Assembly (NCBI GenBank): GCA_963666275.2
Contig: CAXXOA010000001.1
Coordinates: 1,248,001 to 1,312,000, forward strand
DNA from: Oceanispirochaeta sp.
GTDB taxonomy: Bacteria > Spirochaetota > Spirochaetia > DSM-2461
DNA: 64,000 nucleotides
Direction: 5' to 3'
Part shown: positions 42,001-48,000 of the stretch, one piece after another
Layout of the letters: each line of letters opens with the position of its first letter
How positions within the stretch are numbered: the first letter of the stretch is position 1
Position numbers: made by a program

Positions 42001-45000
42001 TAATGTCAGTCTTATAATAAAAATTGATAATGAAAAGTTCACAGATCAATTTGGTCAAATCGGTTATGAACGACCCAAAATACCTAATGATTGGAAAAAT
42101 CATAAGATTGAGTTTGCAAGACGAAAAGATAATGATTGGCTTTCCGTTGGTGAGAAGTTCTTAATCCCATGGAATGGAGAGAATATGTATTTTAACTACA
42201 TGGATTGAATGCCATGCATAACAAGCTTTTGATACTGTCTGCTCTATTGTCATGCTAATTGCAATGCGCAATAAGCACGCCAACTTAACGAACAGCAGCA
42301 TAAAAGAGTGTTATGTTGAAAAAATATAGATAAGTTATTATTGATTTTAAAATGACTGATTATATAATTAACTGAAGGAGTAAGAAATGAAAAAGACTCA
42401 ACACGAATATGAAGAAATAATGATTAAAATACTAGATGATAAATCAAGTATAACAATCACTGAATTTATTGATTTTCTTGAAAAGAGGAATGATAACTGG
42501 AATGATCAACAAATTGTTAAAAATATAGTGTCCAATAGGTTTAATTCTCCTTCTCCATTTGTTAATGGGATATTAAAATATAACGAAACTACTGGTGAAA
42601 TAACAAAGGTTTAAATATGGGAAGGATTCCAGGAGATAAAAAGGAAAAACAAAAGATATTAACTAAACTTGACTGTAAAACGTTAGCAGATATTACAGGA
42701 GATATATTATATTTTAATTACAATCATAATAATGTGAAAATTATGGATGGTCCTGGAGATGGAAAAAGAGATATATATTCAGAAGATGAATATGGAATAC
42801 CATGTATAACACAGTGCAAATATCATGAAGATCTTACCAAAACAGTCAGTTCTGATGAAACAGATCAATTAATTCTTGCTTTAGAAAAATTTAAAACAAA
42901 AAAAGGTTATTTTTCCACTACTTCATTTATTTCGCCCCAAGCGAAAAGGGAATATAAAGATAATTATCCAGGTTATTCATTAGATTTTTTTGAAGGATCA
43001 AATATAGTTGATGAGGTTTATTCAAGTCCAATATTAAAAAAAATATGGGTAGATGATATTCATTTTACAAAGCTAGATTTTAGCCTTAATATAGCTTTTG
43101 TTATTATTGATTTAAATAATTCTAAGATAATTAATGATATATTTGTGGAAGATGAATCAATTAAGTTCAACTTTATTAAACAAGCCTATTTTAATTCGAT
43201 TGTTTTTGATAAAAAATTTGATAATATTTTATCAAACGAATTCATTCATTGCTATGTTTCAACAATAAATAATTGCAATATTCATGATACAGATTCATTA
43301 ATAAATAAAATTCTAAGAGATATAATATCCACAAAACATAATAACAATGCTTTCTCAGTTGTTTTTTCATCACCTTATATTACAAATCATGATAATGAAA
43401 ATAAATACTTTTTGTTGGAAGATATTAAACCAATAATTTTTAATATTGATGCTAAAACAAATATAATAGATCACTTTGATTTTATTGTTCCAAAATCTAC
43501 AATAGACTGGGCTTTTCCTGAGAATTTATCTGTTGCTCAAGCACCTTGGGCTTGTTGGTATAATGAAAATATTGATTCTATGATGCAACTTTTTATTGAA
43601 AAAGAATTACCTTTACACTATTTGTCATATGAAACTCCATTTTTTGATTCTTTAAAGCTATATTTAAACAAATCGTTATTTGTGTCTGGTTCAATAAGAA
43701 ATATGAAAAGATTTATTAAAAAAATGAAAATAAATAATCCTGATTGGGAATGTAATTATGGATATAAATCAAAACTTTATGCATGGATGCATCCAATGAT
43801 AGAAATCTTACAGAATAGAAAATATTCAATGCAACAGAATAAAAGCAATTTAGAATGGAATATAATTCCAAATGAAAAGGTTGATTTAAATAAATATAAA
43901 GAATTTAAAGAAAATGTAGAATCATTTCTATATAAATATCATCTTGAACAAATAGATCTAGAAAAAGCTAATTTTATTTCAAAAGCAGAAAAAAAAGATC
44001 TTATAATAGATAAAATAATATACCAATTTGGTAGTGCTGAATTATTTCATGATTTCAATAAACTTCCATTGCCTTTAGATCAGGGAACAAGATTTACTAA
44101 TATTATTAAAATGTGGAAAGTTGAAGGAGATATTAAAAAAATAAGAAAAAGATTAGAAACTATTAATTTTTCTGATGATACTCTTCATGATTTATTAGTT
44201 GAAGTTAAATATGGGCCTTCTACAATGAAACTATTTATAAAAGTAACATTAACATTCGAAATAAAAAATTATCAGTCCTTTACTGTTTTTTTAGAAAATA
44301 ATAGTAGTAAAATCAATACAATCTTAAAAAATATAGATCATGATATAAAAAGCAAATTCTCTGAAGCTAGTGAAGGAACAAAAGAATTTCTGGTGGATGA
44401 ATTAGACTTTAAATTTGATAATAATAAATTTCAAGGAAGACCTTGGATTGCAACTGTACCTAATTCAACATAACAAGCATTTGCTACTGTCAATTTTTCT
44501 GGCACGTATTTTGTGGTCACAAAATAAGCGCCAGCCCTTCGGGACAAAATTGCAGCAGAAATGGGCGTTACATCGAAGAAGGATATATGATTGAAATAAA
44601 TTCTATTTTAAGAAAAAAATTACTGAAAGAAGATATCAAATATTACTCAGCAACACAAATAGATGAACTTTTTAAAAGAATAGATGAGCTACGAGCTATT
44701 TTTCCAGATGGGAATATTCTTGAGAAAATTTATTGCCGAATCCGCTGGTATGGTTCTGCAGGAATTGCAATAAGAAATAAAATTATAAAATTAACAATTG
44801 AGTATAATAAAAGATCTCATGATCAGATTATGGTTAACCCAACTATTGATACAGTATTAGATTTCAAAACAGTTCGAGTAAATTATAAAGGTAGAAACCA
44901 GCTAATTAATGATATTTGGAAAAATGAACATAAAAAGAATAACTTTGGTATTGCAGATTTAAGAGGGATTAATCTTAATAACGTACAGTTCAACTGGTTG

Positions 45001-48000
45001 TTTATTAAAAATGTCAATTTTATGTATTCAGACTTTGATTCTATATTAATAAATTACTGTAAATTTGAAAATACTCACTTTAGTTATAGTAATTTTTTTA
45101 AATGTTCAATTTTACAAAGTAAGATAATAAATAACACCAGTTTTAATAATTCAAGTTTTAAAAAAACTTACTTTGCAGGAATATCATTTAAGCACTTTTA
45201 TAATTCAAAAATTGATTATGCAAATACCTTTGTATTTATATATTATATTTTAAAAAATAGAATAAGAAAGAGAAGTTTTAATCCATTTTATGGATTACCA
45301 TTTACTATTATTGAAAATATACTTGATACAGGAGAAATTAAATCAAGGCAAATTGGATTGGAACGCTTTTCCAGAATAATTGACAGGATAGAACTCTCTG
45401 AATCGATTACTATGTATGAATCATATTCAAATTTTAGAGTAGTTATATACATATTAAATATTCTCATGACTAAGAACTGGACATCTTACATAAATATGTT
45501 TTTTTCATTTTTAGTATCCAACTTATTCTTTTCTTATCTCTATAGTCAAAGTATTAATGGCTTTATAACGGATTCAAAAGAAGTAACTCTTAGTCTACTC
45601 GATTCATTCTATTTCAGTATAATAACAATTACAACATTAGGTTATGGGGATATTTCTCCACATTCTATAACTGTAAAAATAATGGTGATTTGTGAAGTTA
45701 TATTTGGTGTAATTATATTAGGATTATTTGTTAATACTATTAGTGGAAAGATATCTACAAAGAAGTATTTACAATAATTCGATGTAACACATATAAGGGC
45801 TCCAGTTGTCAAGGAATAAAACAGCCCCTGAACTGAATTTTACTCCTTTCAGCTCCATAAAAAATTAAACATATGCCGTTATGCGATATAAATTATATCC
45901 TGTCTTGTTTCTATCAATGGGCTGCAGAAGATTCTGCTCCAAACACATATTGATGGTTACTCATAGAAATACATCCGTACCCAAAACTGTCACAATCAAA
46001 AAAGGAATTCACAGCAAGTGTGTTCCAGTTACTTACCGTGATCAGCCTGGTGCAGAATACTCTTTACTTCACATATTGGTCCTTTATAAGGGCCATTACA
46101 GAGGTCTAATCAAACAATTCTACTTCTCAAAGTTATTGAAGCAATCTGATCGTAGCGGGTTTTCTTCCCCAAAAAAATGACCGGAATTGCTTCTTCCTTA
46201 TGCTGGAATAGTTATATCGCAGGCTCCTCTGTAACGCCCAATCTCAGATCTGAATAAAATATCGTATAATCGAATGGTTCCCTCCTTTTTAGTATGTAAT
46301 ACACAGAACGAGCCAACTTATGAGAGATGATAGATAGGGCTTTCCCTCTGCCATATCGATTCATCAGTTTATTATGATAAAGTTTCGATCTGTCATTATC
46401 TTTGATAAAAAGTACTGCGGCCTCTGAAAATGCCCATTTAAGATGTGCATTACCAATCTTGGTATTTTTTGATCCCATACGCTTCCCTGACGATTCACGT
46501 GGGCATTTGACAAGCCGGCAGTAAGAGACGAAGTTTTGTACTCTAGGAAATCTTTTAATATCTTCAATCTCATAAAGTATGGTCAAACCAAGGATTTTCC
46601 CTATTCCGGGGACAGTTTTCAATAGTGAAAATGCAACCGGATCGTGAAATCTTGCTCCTTTGAGTATAATTGAATCCAGATTCCGAATCTGCTTTTCTAG
46701 GGTTGTTATTACAGCTAGGTCTGTCTGGATATTAATATTTACCAATGGAATAGTGAAATGCTCTGCTAAATCGTCACGGTTTATTTTGTAGGTGATCTTT
46801 TTCCCGATGGGAGGAAGATTATATTGATAATTTGTATTCTGAATATGGGAGAGAAAATCACTCTTTTTCTTAACAAGGTATTGTCTTCTTCTGAGAAGAT
46901 CCCTGGTTGCTCGCATCCGTGCTGGGTAAACATATGCCATGGGAATCATGCCGCCTCGCAACAGGGATGCTATTTTCATTGAATCGATCTTATCATTTTT
47001 AGTTTTCCCATTGCTGATTGCTTTCATATAAAGAGCATGCCCTAGCACGAAGGGGATGCTTTCTTTGGCACAAATATCTGCAATCCAGTACCAGGTAAAC
47101 ATACACTCAACGCAAACAACCAGGTCTTCTCGATAAGGATTTATAGCTTTAAGAAATACATCAGCATCAGTTTGTATATTTTTGTGATAGAGTATTTCAC
47201 CTGTTTGGTCCATAATACAGAGATACATCACTTTGGTATGGAGATCTATTCCGCAGTAATACTTATGCTGCTTGGTATAGAATGTCATAGGACACCTCCT
47301 TGATGGTAAATGACTCTTATATTTTATCATTCTCCGGGGAGCCCTTAATAAGTATCAAACAAATGATGCAGTCGAAGCTATAGATCACATTTCTTGCAGA
47401 AATTGCTTCGACAATGGAATTGTTCTTTTCAAATAACGAATTGGTGTTTAGAGTATAGATGCAAGAAAAGCGCCTATACCTGCCCTTCGGACAGGCCGCT
47501 CCGCAGCATATTTGGGCGTTATATAGCGTACAAATTGTATAATCAATTGACAATATGTACATGTGTGATAAAATTCAAAATATGATAAATAGGCAAATGG
47601 AGCAGGAATTACAGCTCCTAAAGAATGAATTCCCAATAATTGCGATACTTGGTCCAAGACAATCTGGAAAAACAACATTATCCAAAATAGTTTTTCCAGA
47701 ATATCAATATATTTCCCTCGAGGATATTGATCACCGAGAATTTGCGACTAATGATCCCCGCGGCTTTCTAAACAAATACTCAAAAAATATTATATTTGAT
47801 GAAATTCAACGTGTTCCACAGCTTATGTCTTATCTCCAATCCCATGTGGATAGTTTGAACGAGAATGGAAAAATAATTATAACCGGTTCCCATAACTTTT
47901 TCTTGATGGAGCAAATAAGCCAGTCTCTGGCAGGACGTGTAGGGATTACAAAATTATTACCATTTTCAATCTATGAGTTAACCAATGAACAGAAATCATT

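Follow-up and report, generated by a model that had tools for sequence, protein, structure and literature searches.

A gene in the window (the 64,000-nt stretch of Oceanispirochaeta sp. DNA that we analyzed) may encode an anti-phage effector of the abortive-infection or growth-arrest type. The gene (44587-45777, + strand) has an intact ORF of 396 aa that specifies an N-terminal domain, a pentapeptide-repeat β-helix, linker helices, and a two-transmembrane (2-TM) K+ pore. We tentatively read its product as a HalB-independent, HalA-like channel that moves as a single gene, here as an integron cassette. HalA is reportedly the effector of the Hailong system, said to have been described by Tan et al. 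in 2025 (Nature 643:794).

The survey's finding was that K+-channel genes carried as cassettes are phage-defense effectors. The mechanism is real (HalA), and full-length relatives of the gene lie in defense islands and a prophage, but the novelty does not stand. The statement that ion-selective K+ channels are not among described effectors was outdated by the 2025 publication of Hailong, and since a pentapeptide plus Kir-type channel is already known as a phage-defense effector (HalA), this is not a new effector class. What would set the gene apart from HalA, if our reading is true, is a one-gene channel family with its own N-terminal domain and no HalB partner. Our data show the domain build, the filter, the fold likeness to HalA, that HalB is absent, that the gene moves singly, and the contexts in which it lies; the defense reading leans on association at six other full-length loci.

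A pentapeptide module joined to a Kir-like pore

The pore domain (45478-45771, + strand, as for all parts of the gene), comprising TM1, pore helix, filter, and TM2, was identified using Ion_trans_2, a family profile, and VIA. Pfam placed Ion_trans_2 at aa 318-387 (E 3.1e-13; 49.9 bits, cut-off 22.5), and the profile, made from an alignment of the channel protein and 39 relatives (n = 40), matched KirBac3.1 at E 5e-13. In VIA, the pore matched NaK and KirBac at Z 11-11.9; KirBac/Kir chains superposed with an rmsd of 2.1-2.7 Å over ~90 residues, while the NaK rows, at equal Z, gave ~8 Å. The selectivity filter, read from the sequence, is TTLGYGD (aa 349-355, 45631-45651), and a G[YF]G filter is kept in 36 of the 40 aligned family members. 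Although the protein resembles KirBac/Kir channels in pore fold and filter, it lacks the Kir C-terminal Ig-like cytoplasmic domain. Unlike in Kir, its cytoplasmic part lies N-terminal to the pore and is made up of the β-helix and a domain of unrecognized fold.

The β-helix (~aa 119-250, 44941-45336) was delineated using the profile, VIA, NCBIfam, and Pfam matches below the cut-offs (Pentapeptide_4, 21.6 bits versus 38; Pentapeptide, 16.8 versus 20.2). The family profile matched solved pentapeptide proteins at E 1e-24. The AF2 model of the channel protein (pLDDT 84.5) contains the β-helix, which aligns to NleL, SV2, and MfpA (Z 11-12.6, VIA). Its charge is near neutral (family mean -1.0; +4 in the channel protein), which argues against the earlier reading of the module as a "DNA-mimic"; moreover, HalA binds oligo-dA at inter-subunit interfaces, according to a review. 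Basic linker helices (aa 252-294, 45340-45468), taken from the secondary structure of the AF2 model, run from crown to pore; the family mean net charge of aa 213-297 is +5.0. No PDB sequence match was found for aa 200-300.

The N-terminal domain (aa 1-118, 44587-44940), defined by alignments and a domain model, is mostly helical with a small β-hairpin. It is family-specific, with R53, W54, G59, and F93 invariant across the family. Modeled alone (pLDDT 76), it had no recognized fold, as the best of 48,161 PDB chains reached only Z 5.0. The three-part build that the survey had described is confirmed.

An integron-type cassette in an integrase-less array

The channel gene is foreign and low in GC (0.246, compared to 0.478 for the genome), in line with the earlier account, and is an integron-type cassette of the window array. 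The attC that opens the cassette (44468-44573, + strand) has an R'' box, ACATAAC, overlapping the upstream gene's stop codon, and an R' box, GTTACAT. Its bottom strand folds into a long, imperfectly paired hairpin (z -4.9, -23.5 kcal/mol) that none of 200 shuffled sequences equaled, and a related copy is present in the C3 array. The closing attC (~47354-47524, + strand) is of a long type with the R' box GTTATAT and a weaker fold (z -1.8). It has 11 related copies (nhmmer), two of which, at C1:1036-1057 kb, adjoin intI. As the survey had placed it, this site lies beyond an IS110-family transposase gene (46212-47330, - strand; Transposase_20 and DEDD_Tnp_IS110) that has inserted downstream of the channel gene and ahead of this 3' attC; the element is single-copy in the genome and is known here from its transposase gene, its ends being unmapped. 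The stretch 45781-45888 was ruled out as an attC, as it does not fold (z -0.6).

A further attC (42215-42318, + strand; hairpin z -3.3), with relatives in C3 and near intI, separates two Mrr-type cassettes. The R' boxes of the window sites (GTTACAT and GTTATAT) deviate from strict GTTRRRY. Relatives of the window's attC types occur at C1:1035-1060 kb and also in C2 and C3. Only one integrase in the genome exceeds the TIGR02249 cut-off (390 bits, C1:1063760-1064701). Since the attC families of the window array also adjoin this only true intI, 222 kb distant, the array is a cluster of attC sites lacking an integrase (CALIN). Promoter signal was not above chance (47 found, 49.5 expected).

That defense genes are stored in integron cassettes is well established, according to a preprint (bioRxiv 10.1101/2024.07.02.601686). 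The defense-type neighbors reported earlier were all recovered. Upstream is a 618-aa protein with an Mrr_cat nuclease domain (42617-44473, + strand; Pfam E 2.6e-7; PADLOC mREase_IV E 2.2e-4), and downstream an AAA_14 and DUF4143 ATPase (47555-48748, + strand; Pfam) that matches PADLOC PDC-S01 at E 1.2e-102. On C2, the matches are Old (1.3e-64) and SoFic (3.8e-113).

Two other genes, g03349 and g01081, had been grouped with this one (g01076) as a single class of channels in attC arrays. Both are channel genes: g03349 (294 aa) has the filter TTTGYGD and adjoins a DUF5677 protein, and g01081 (275 aa) matches Ion_trans (E 1.1e-36). However, the three are unrelated outside the pore, and while g01076 is attC-flanked, g01081 is not attC-bounded and has an IS copy on one side and, on the other, a 298-nt duplicate of the end of that IS. 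We found no attC or defense match (Pfam, PADLOC) for g01081 and no Pfam or PADLOC match for its partner, g01080. Both genes are less well supported as effectors than the channel gene at 44587-45777, and the grouping into a single class is not supported.

Relatives and their loci

An exhaustive search recovered 4726 matches at E<=1e-3, 69 of them at E<=1e-10. The survey's 14 other relatives, six with pentapeptide plus Ion_trans_2, were reproduced but were an undercount. Among the 150 matches listed, ~38 relatives were full-length; full-length members scored >270 bits with the family profile, and the next ORF 182 bits. Among sampled genomes, 1 of 401 from the family's own phylum carried it, as did 1 of 401 from the phylum to which G002 belongs, each time the seed genome only. 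Further members come from Chryseobacterium and Pseudomonas.

PADLOC gave strong neighbors at three of the six other full-length loci (a raw count). At L009, PDC-M62A/B are upstream (E 1.9e-57 and 2.6e-77) and PD-Lambda-4_A is downstream (1.4e-47); at L169, Hp2 and Hp3 are upstream (2.4e-38 and 8.5e-17); and at L101, a Ppl-like 991-aa ATPase is downstream (3.1e-31) and a RecD-like helicase upstream. L100 is a prophage, with the gene between a DUF1492-like gene and the small/large terminase and portal genes and a Tad2-like gene nearby. L029 adjoins PIN and DUF433 genes (toxin-antitoxin-type), and the only neighbor at L026, on a 2.5-kb contig, is a CLC channel; no defense system was seen at these two loci. 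Gene GC was below locus GC at all five other full-length loci with readable flanks (for example, 0.29 versus 0.44 and 0.39 versus 0.50). No neighboring ORF was shared between any two of seven loci (blastp E<=1e-3).

Shorter relatives (275-344 aa) align from profile position 45-51 and have GC near that of their flanks. Three of seven (L041, L129, and L178) have housekeeping neighbors, L013 has these plus one dCTPase match, and L175 has no PADLOC match nearby. L102 occupies the first cargo position in a Tn7-like element and has a PDC-S26 neighbor, and L113 has HEC-08/PDC-S64 neighbors.

Fusions of pentapeptide repeats to Ion_trans_2, arranged as they are here, are common across phyla (Poribacteria, Planctomycetota, Gammaproteobacteria, and others) and fill several Atlas clusters of 50-100 members. 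They lack the N-terminal domain, aligning from profile position ~100-129 at <=175 bits, and have longer, canonical repeat arrays. Since their neighbors are ordinary, mostly housekeeping genes (DUF1501, GFO_IDH_MocA, Na/Ca exchanger, PAP2, glycosidases), the pentapeptide-pore architecture alone does not imply defense.

Likeness to HalA, proposed mechanism, and alternatives

The best PDB match of the channel protein was HalA with oligo-dA (9nyi_A; Foldseek E 3.7e-6, probability 1.00), spanning 331 alignment columns for a HalA chain of 333 residues. Both have a cytoplasmic pentapeptide module followed by a Kir-type 2-TM pore. Foldseek TM-scores were low (0.24 and 0.27), and HalA was absent from the top 50 rigid-body matches (VIA). 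The top NCBIfam match was anti_phage_HalA (NF051894, E 1.1e-7), covering aa 122-219 only at 31 bits versus a 250-bit cut-off; 17 of 40 family members match this model and 16 match Qnr. Judged by these matches, sequence likeness to HalA is limited to the pentapeptide part and is not above that to Qnr-type proteins. The channel protein also has an extra 118-aa N-terminal domain, and its family has no conserved partner gene, whereas Hailong pairs HalA with HalB. Neither next to the gene nor elsewhere in the genome did we find a HalB, NTF-like, or HEPN_SAV_6107 gene. With this score, the extra domain, no HalB, and no shared neighbor, the protein is not HalA itself. HalA resides on mobile defense hotspots, according to the literature, and several loci of the channel family likewise lie beside defense genes or in a prophage.

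The review describes HalA as a homotetramer that forms a channel gated by DNA, with a crown on the cytoplasmic side, and HalA is reported to depolarize cells with Na+ inflow. A P4-satellite system, equated with Hailong by its authors, has a channel component with Pentapeptide_4 and IRK (NAR 2026, supplement FileS5 p.6). The Foldseek top match of that protein is KirBac, and the construct reduced plaquing of Bas18, Bas20, and Bas24 (NAR 2026, supplement and its table).

By analogy, our gene may encode a self-contained phage-triggered channel. Four subunits would form a Kir-type 2-TM pore, with the β-helices, basic linker, and N-terminal domain as a crown beneath it that would keep the inner gate shut, either by self-inhibition or with a constitutive cell ligand held in place, as oligo-dA is in HalA. 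A phage cue would strip the ligand or bind the N-terminal domain, opening the gate. A GYG filter is expected to pass K+ selectively and not to act as a general leak. Since the filter is canonical GYG, flux should be mainly K+, in place of the membrane-potential collapse proposed earlier. The cell would lose K+, with its voltage clamped near the K+ equilibrium potential, and growth and phage replication would stall.

A conserved K+ filter is typical of a physiological K+ channel and counts against the defense reading. The gene could encode an ordinary ligand-gated channel for K+/osmotic homeostasis, carried as an accessory cassette, whose crown and N-terminal domain sense a metabolic or ionic signal. 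Filter retention, the many fusions beside housekeeping genes, the absence of any PADLOC model matching the protein or its relatives, public annotations that call relatives only "ion channel", and the travel of non-defense genes as integron cassettes are all consistent with this view. However, a housekeeping channel should be inherited vertically and keep its synteny, and we saw neither; full-length members are very rare and patchily distributed, their GC is below that of their flanks at all five other loci where flanks were readable, and four of the six other loci are beside defense systems or in a prophage (raw count). We therefore consider an ordinary channel somewhat unlikely.

It is distinctly less probable that the gene serves its element rather than general host defense, as a membrane toxin or an exclusion factor that prophages, transposons, or cassette arrays would employ in superinfection exclusion, in timing lysis, or in post-segregational stabilization. 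Such a role would fit the L100 gene immediately ahead of the terminase genes, the L102 cargo position, the toxin-antitoxin cassettes of the window array (MntA/HepT, Gp49/HTH, and Phd/ParE; Pfam), and the small K+ channels of eukaryotic viruses among BFVD matches. It fits poorly with the lack of a conserved antitoxin-like partner, of any relative in 50,697 phage records, and of full-length members in IMG/VR scans, and it overlaps our main reading, as prophage exclusion genes themselves count as defense. Highly improbable is a true HalA that lost HalB and is decaying or silent, despite HalA being the top structural match, the HalB-less genome, and the fact that cassettes of integrase-less arrays may go unexpressed. 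The review reports that HalA is toxic when HalB is missing, so an orphan would be expected to decay, but the ORF is intact. Further, the NF051894 score is far below the cut-off, the extra domain is conserved and common to ~40 intact relatives, and HalB was also not found in two other family genomes tested (MAG-level).

As an abortive-infection effector, the HalA-like channel would join RexB and Sucellos SclB, which the preprint cited above describes as membrane channels. Their folds are unrelated to it, and they act in two-gene systems with a separate sensor (RexA, SclA), whereas the channel gene has no partner. Sucellos, as described there, is likewise an integron cassette carried in a chromosomal integron.

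Architecture of the channel and its likeness to HalA

The survey's finding of a low-GC channel gene behind an attC site was confirmed. The gene, g01076 (44587-45777, forward strand), is an intact ORF of 396 aa with a GC content of 0.246 against 0.478 for the genome. Pfam Ion_trans_2 covers aa 318-387 (E = 3.1e-13), and its 49.9 bits pass the gathering cut-off of 22.5. Between the pore helix and TM2, residues 349-355 read TTLGYGD, which fits the filter signature T-x-G-Y/F-G-D/E. We aligned g01076 (P0001) with 39 relatives (alignment A1), 35 from an exhaustive HMMER search and four from another, all full-length single-stretch matches. 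G[YF]G is present in 36 of the 40 family members and absent from P0036, P0045, P0055, and P0062.

When the A1 profile was compared with PDB sequences, KirBac3.1 matched at E = 5e-13. The AF2 model of g01076 (pLDDT 84.5, pTM 0.79) starts with helices (aa 2-83), followed by a beta-helix spanning about aa 120-250 and a pair of linker helices (aa 252-294); TM1, the pore helix, and TM2 complete the chain. In VIA-align comparisons, the modeled pore matched KirBac and Kir at Z 11-11.5 with an rmsd of 2.1-2.7 Å, and NaK at Z about 11.8, yet with an rmsd of about 8 Å. Fold and filter suggest that a g01076 tetramer would conduct K+ selectively. None of the PADLOC models matched g01076.

The pentapeptide region, previously proposed from the pattern of the sequence, was borne out. 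In g01076 itself, the pentapeptide families PF13599 (21.6 bits, cut-off 38) and PF00805 (16.8 bits, cut-off 20.2) stay below their gathering cut-offs at aa 120-178, while close relatives pass, as does the one at locus L009 with 30.1 bits against 20.2. With the A1 profile, pentapeptide proteins of solved structure match at E = 1e-24; profile and model comparison both identify a right-handed quadrilateral beta-helix. Its matches in VIA-align reach Z 11-12.6, namely NleL (Z 12.6 at 3.7 Å), the SV2B domain (Z 12.1, rmsd 1.4 Å), and MfpA (6zt4_A, Z 11.2, rmsd 1.8 Å). The suggestion that this module senses phage as a DNA mimic was not supported. With a beta-helix close to neutral charge (family mean -1.0, g01076 +4) and a basic linker (+5.0), the protein does not fit an acidic DNA mimic. 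A PDB sequence search with the linker (aa 200-300) gave no match. The N-domain (aa 1-118), modeled alone, has a pLDDT of 76 and found nothing above Z 5.0 among 48,161 chains, so that no fold could be assigned.

A channel of this plan is already known from anti-phage defense. The channel protein of a P4-satellite system equated with Hailong combines Pentapeptide_4 with IRK and has KirBac as a Foldseek match, and the second protein of that system joins NTF-like PF14540 to HEPN-like PF18726 (NAR 2026, supplement FileS5 p.6). As summarized in reviews of Tan et al. 2025, the nucleotidyltransferase HalB makes oligo-dA, which binds at the subunit interfaces of the tetrameric channel HalA and holds it closed; once a phage exonuclease has taken the oligo-dA away, HalA opens, and the membrane depolarizes. 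The same reviews describe HalA as toxic without HalB. The earlier claim of a new effector class is therefore superseded by Hailong, whose HalA is itself a pentapeptide protein with a Kir-type channel.

Like HalA, g01076 joins a pentapeptide cytoplasmic module to a Kir/IRK-type pore. HalA with oligo-dA (9nyi_A) was the first PDB match of the g01076 model in Foldseek (E = 3.7e-6, probability 1.00); the alignment spans 331 columns of a 333-residue chain, but with TM scores of only 0.24 and 0.27. The top NCBIfam match was likewise anti_phage_HalA (NF051894), at 31.4 bits against an equivalog cut-off of 250 and confined to aa 122-219, or positions 50-146 of the 338 in the model. Seventeen of the 40 family members match the HalA model (best E = 1.2e-8), and about as many, 16, match Qnr. 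HalA is missing among the best 60 PDB sequence matches and the best 50 VIA matches, both lists consisting mostly of single-domain matches. Among 400 sampled genomes of one class, none had a HalA above the cut-off.

We found no HalB partner. In the channel's own genome, which is 97% complete, the best match to the HalB model (NF051895) scored 23.5 bits against a cut-off of 190 and lay far from the window, and neither PF14540 nor PF18726 matched anything. HalB was also not found in two further metagenome-assembled genomes that carry full-length relatives (G002 and G003). Thus g01076 is built on the HalA plan, yet, with 31.4 bits where 250 are required and no HalB found, it lies outside the HalA family and outside any Hailong operon. 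Our literature search found nothing on HalB-less pentapeptide K+ channels in defense, though the primary Hailong paper may discuss such homologues.

A cassette array apart from its integrase

At about 38.2 kb of the window, GC falls from about 0.52 to 0.33 over a 20-kb stretch in which genes are short and co-directional. The attC site at 44468-44573 fills the 106 nt between the preceding gene's stop codon and the ribosome-binding site of g01076. Its bottom strand forms a long hairpin with imperfect pairing (-23.5 kcal/mol, z -4.9), with none of 200 shuffles as good, and the site at 42215-42318, between two upstream cassettes, does likewise (z -3.3). The R′ boxes retain GTT, but read GTTACAT, GTTATAT, and GTTATGT where the textbook form is GTTRRRY. 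As the survey had reported, the next attC comes after an IS110-family element; this site is of the long type, lies at about 47354-47524, and folds more weakly (z -1.8). A nearer candidate right after g01076 (45781-45888) was rejected because it showed no fold (z -0.6).

Using nhmmer with the window's attC sites, we found related copies at five places in the genome. Those at C1:1035-1060 kb lie on the strand opposite to intI (C1:1063760-1064701, 390 bits), the sole integron integrase above the TIGR02249 cut-off. The window's sites are thus attC sites of this genome's own integron. No intI lies within the window; the array is about 222 kb downstream of it and so is not contiguous with intI and attI, which makes the array a CALIN, an integrase-less attC cluster. 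Set against the one intI are at least five separate attC clusters (C1:1035-1060, C1:1290-1305, C2:1166-1174, C3:184-204, and C3:269-280 kb), which have two or three attC sequence types in common. The genome carries scattered integrase-less arrays besides the intI-linked one.

Only 13 nt separate attC from the start codon of g01076, too few for the cassette to carry its own promoter. A promoter scan did no better than chance (47 sites, 49.5 expected) and was uninformative. The IS110-family transposase gene (46212-47330, reverse strand) lies between g01076 and its 3′ attC; the element is single-copy in the genome and sits inside the channel cassette, in the interval 45778-47353. About 340 nt comprising the 5′ end of the transposase gene and the attC (47191-47524) match C2:1166314-1166643 at 85%. 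Some relatives in the IS110/IS1111 group are known to target attC sites.

The array also contains three toxin-antitoxin-type pairs, which are typical of chromosomal cassette arrays: an MntA/HepT-like pair (Polbeta with HepT-like_2) at 38474-39188, Gp49 with HTH_3 at 56082-56704, and Phd/YefM with ParE at 57058-57672. A two-gene cassette at 40119-42208 encodes a membrane protein of 311 aa, which matches REase-ARP weakly, and an Mrr_cat protein of 385 aa. The start of the second gene overlaps the end of the first by 4 nt, and the Mrr part of its product matches the PADLOC models ZorD, PDC-S02, and mREase_IV. An attC-like 5′ half at 57677-57713, 86% identical to 42217-42253, overlaps the 3′ end of an ORF on the reverse strand (57679-58248) and is the probable distal boundary of the array.

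Relatives of the channel and what it may do

The exhaustive HMMER search with g01076 gave 4726 matches at E ≤ 1e-3 and only 69 at E ≤ 1e-10; the closest non-self match stood at E = 9e-30 with 30% identity, and about 38 of the 150 matches listed were full-length relatives of 360-440 aa. Members of A1 have four parts in common: an N-terminal region in which R53, W54, and G59 are invariant, the motif DLRGIDLSG with which the repeats open, a helix with YIxWYQ and the motif TKxWxSY, both ahead of TM1, and the pore. Run over the loci fetched around relatives, the A1 profile found seven full-length ORFs above 270 bits, the window's own included. A second group of eight shorter relatives scored 86-182 bits, with alignments starting at profile position 45-51, and pentapeptide-pore fusions without the N-domain aligned from about position 100-129 at up to 175 bits.

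The full-length family is sparse. In its own phylum, among 401 genomes sampled, only the seed genome carries it, and the same was true of the phylum of G002, again with 401 sampled. Named members come from Chryseobacterium flavum and Pseudomonas and are annotated merely as "ion channel." A tblastn search of 50,697 phage records gave no match, and plasmids yielded pore-level matches only, in nine records. In IMG/VR, the sole pentapeptide-pore ORF (L092, 564 aa) falls outside the full-length family, the rest being pore-only, and scans for close relatives with two family members returned nothing. BFVD holds pentapeptide and channel proteins only as separate entries.

Of the six other full-length loci, a small sample given as raw counts, three have strong PADLOC neighbors, one is a prophage, one has toxin-antitoxin-type neighbors, and one has none. 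In a Clostridium metagenome-assembled genome (L009), PDC-M62A/B (E = 1.9e-57 and 2.6e-77) lie directly upstream and PD-Lambda-4_A (1.4e-47) directly downstream. At L169, PADLOC Hp2 and Hp3 (2.4e-38 and 8.5e-17), which we take to be parts of an Rst_3HP system, are directly upstream. A RecD-like helicase gene is found at L101, with a gene for a Ppl-like 991-aa ATPase (3.1e-31) downstream. In the prophage (L100), the channel gene stands between a DUF1492-like gene and those for terminase small and large subunits and portal, with a Tad2-like gene beyond. The channel gene of L029 adjoins PIN and DUF433 genes among otherwise metabolic neighbors, and L026, a contig of 2.5 kb, has a CLC channel gene. 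The prophage, seen on 17 kb of a metagenome contig, encodes a Dam-type methylase as well as the Tad2-like (anti-Thoeris) protein, so this one element carries a putative defense gene together with a counter-defense gene.

The channel is a single-gene unit: within 4 kb, no ORF of at least 40 aa is common to any two of the seven full-length loci. In all five other loci with readable flanks, the GC of the channel gene is below that of the locus (0.29/0.44, 0.33/0.38, 0.39/0.50, 0.22/0.25, and 0.34/0.43). The GC of shorter relatives is near that of their flanks.

Seven of the eight loci of shorter relatives were annotated, leaving out a 1.7-kb contig (L104). Housekeeping neighbors surround three of them: penicillin-binding protein, O-methyltransferase, and Ham1 genes at L129 and L178, and DNA polymerase III gamma/tau and Dus genes at L041. 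A fourth (L013) lies among DnaE, RecA, and RecX genes, with one dCTPase defense match (E = 2.5e-130) about 2.4 kb off; the neighbor at L175 is a gene of the Schlafen AlbA_2 type, and no PADLOC model matched there, and at L113 a HEC-08/PDC-S64 gene lies about 1.9 kb downstream. At L102 (909-10395), the cargo of a Tn7-like element opens with the gene of a 324-aa relative, and PDC-S26 (E = 1.6e-128) lies about 2.1 kb downstream of the channel. The L102 channel directly follows genes for a Mu-transposase C-terminal domain, TniB, and TnsD/TniQ, and a 355-aa gene stands between it and PDC-S26. Fusions without the N-domain have ordinary neighbors (26 of 75 genome loci viewed, 13 with Pfam on neighbors).

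The survey's proposal of a defense effector is partly supported: the HalA-like build and the defense and prophage settings of full-length relatives speak for it, and the ordinary neighbors of several shorter relatives and of N-domain-less fusions speak against it. Our tentative preference, at somewhat less than an even chance, is that g01076 is a HalA-like channel effector opened by an infection cue. A tetrameric Kir-type pore would bear a cytoplasmic crown of beta-helix, basic linker, and N-domain that holds the gate shut, and the cue would free the gate. The open channel would then pass K+, as expected from its canonical filter, and the harm would be K+ loss and a voltage clamped near the K+ equilibrium potential, with no general collapse, an expectation drawn from established K+-channel biophysics. 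A bolder version, possible though on balance doubtful, makes the family a one-gene relative of Hailong, independent of HalB: a K+-selective sensor-effector whose K+ efflux kills or arrests the cell and which spreads as a bare gene in integron cassettes, defense islands, Tn7-like cargo, and prophages. N-domain and crown would sense infection directly, through binding of a phage product or loss of a constitutive cell ligand, and abortive infection would proceed by selective K+ loss instead of non-specific depolarization.

Three other explanations were weighed. That g01076 is a regulated K+ channel of the usual kind, traveling as cargo, is fairly unlikely; the housekeeping neighbors of shorter relatives are in its favor, the strong PADLOC neighbors of full-length ones against it, and the finding would then be an ordinary one. 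A gene in the service of the mobile element itself, a distinctly improbable reading, would suit the prophage and the Tn7-like element, and has against it the negative search of phage records. An orphaned HalA would share the pentapeptide and Kir-type plan; given the low score against the HalA model, we regard it as highly improbable. What Hailong leaves of the claimed novelty is a family separate from HalA, rare and mobile, that lacks HalB and has a new N-domain. If this family defends against phage alone, a DNA-synthesizing partner is dispensable for regulating a channel of the Hailong type, and 396 aa would suffice for a compact sensor-effector with a putative 118-aa sensor domain. Such a role would also suggest a function for at least some of the orphan K+ channels of prokaryotes whose cytoplasmic modules are unusual, and would be further evidence of defense-gene storage in integron arrays outside Vibrio.

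Two further channels

The survey had placed g01076 in one class with two other channel genes. Both are channels, and both are unrelated to g01076 outside the pore. The first, g03349 (C2:1173877-1174761, or 9878-10762 on the reverse strand of the fetched locus L179), encodes 294 aa with the filter TTTGYGD; a single TM helix at the N-terminus leads into roughly 200 aa of coiled-coil-like sequence, and a pore helix and TM2 come after. This topology is unusual in that the coiled-coil-like stretch replaces the short outer loop of a 2-TM channel. The gene is paired with one for a DUF5677 protein, with Old and SoFic nearby; neither g03349 nor its DUF5677 partner matches a PADLOC model. The second, g01081 (52185-53012, GC 0.39), is a 6-TM Ion_trans channel. 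We saw no sign of a defense role for g03349 or g01081.

Together with its paired gene g01080, g01081 is bracketed by a DDE_Tnp_1_6 insertion sequence and a copy of the 3′ end of that element. The insertion sequence, of IS1182 type (48986-50700, transposase gene 48986-50524), comes just after an attC at 48742-48912. The copy, 2.7 kb downstream (53127-53424), is 298 nt long, 97% identical, and in direct orientation, and still encodes the transposase C-terminus. The intI-linked array carries a third copy of this end (222 nt, 91%) at its far side, C1:1034197-1034417.
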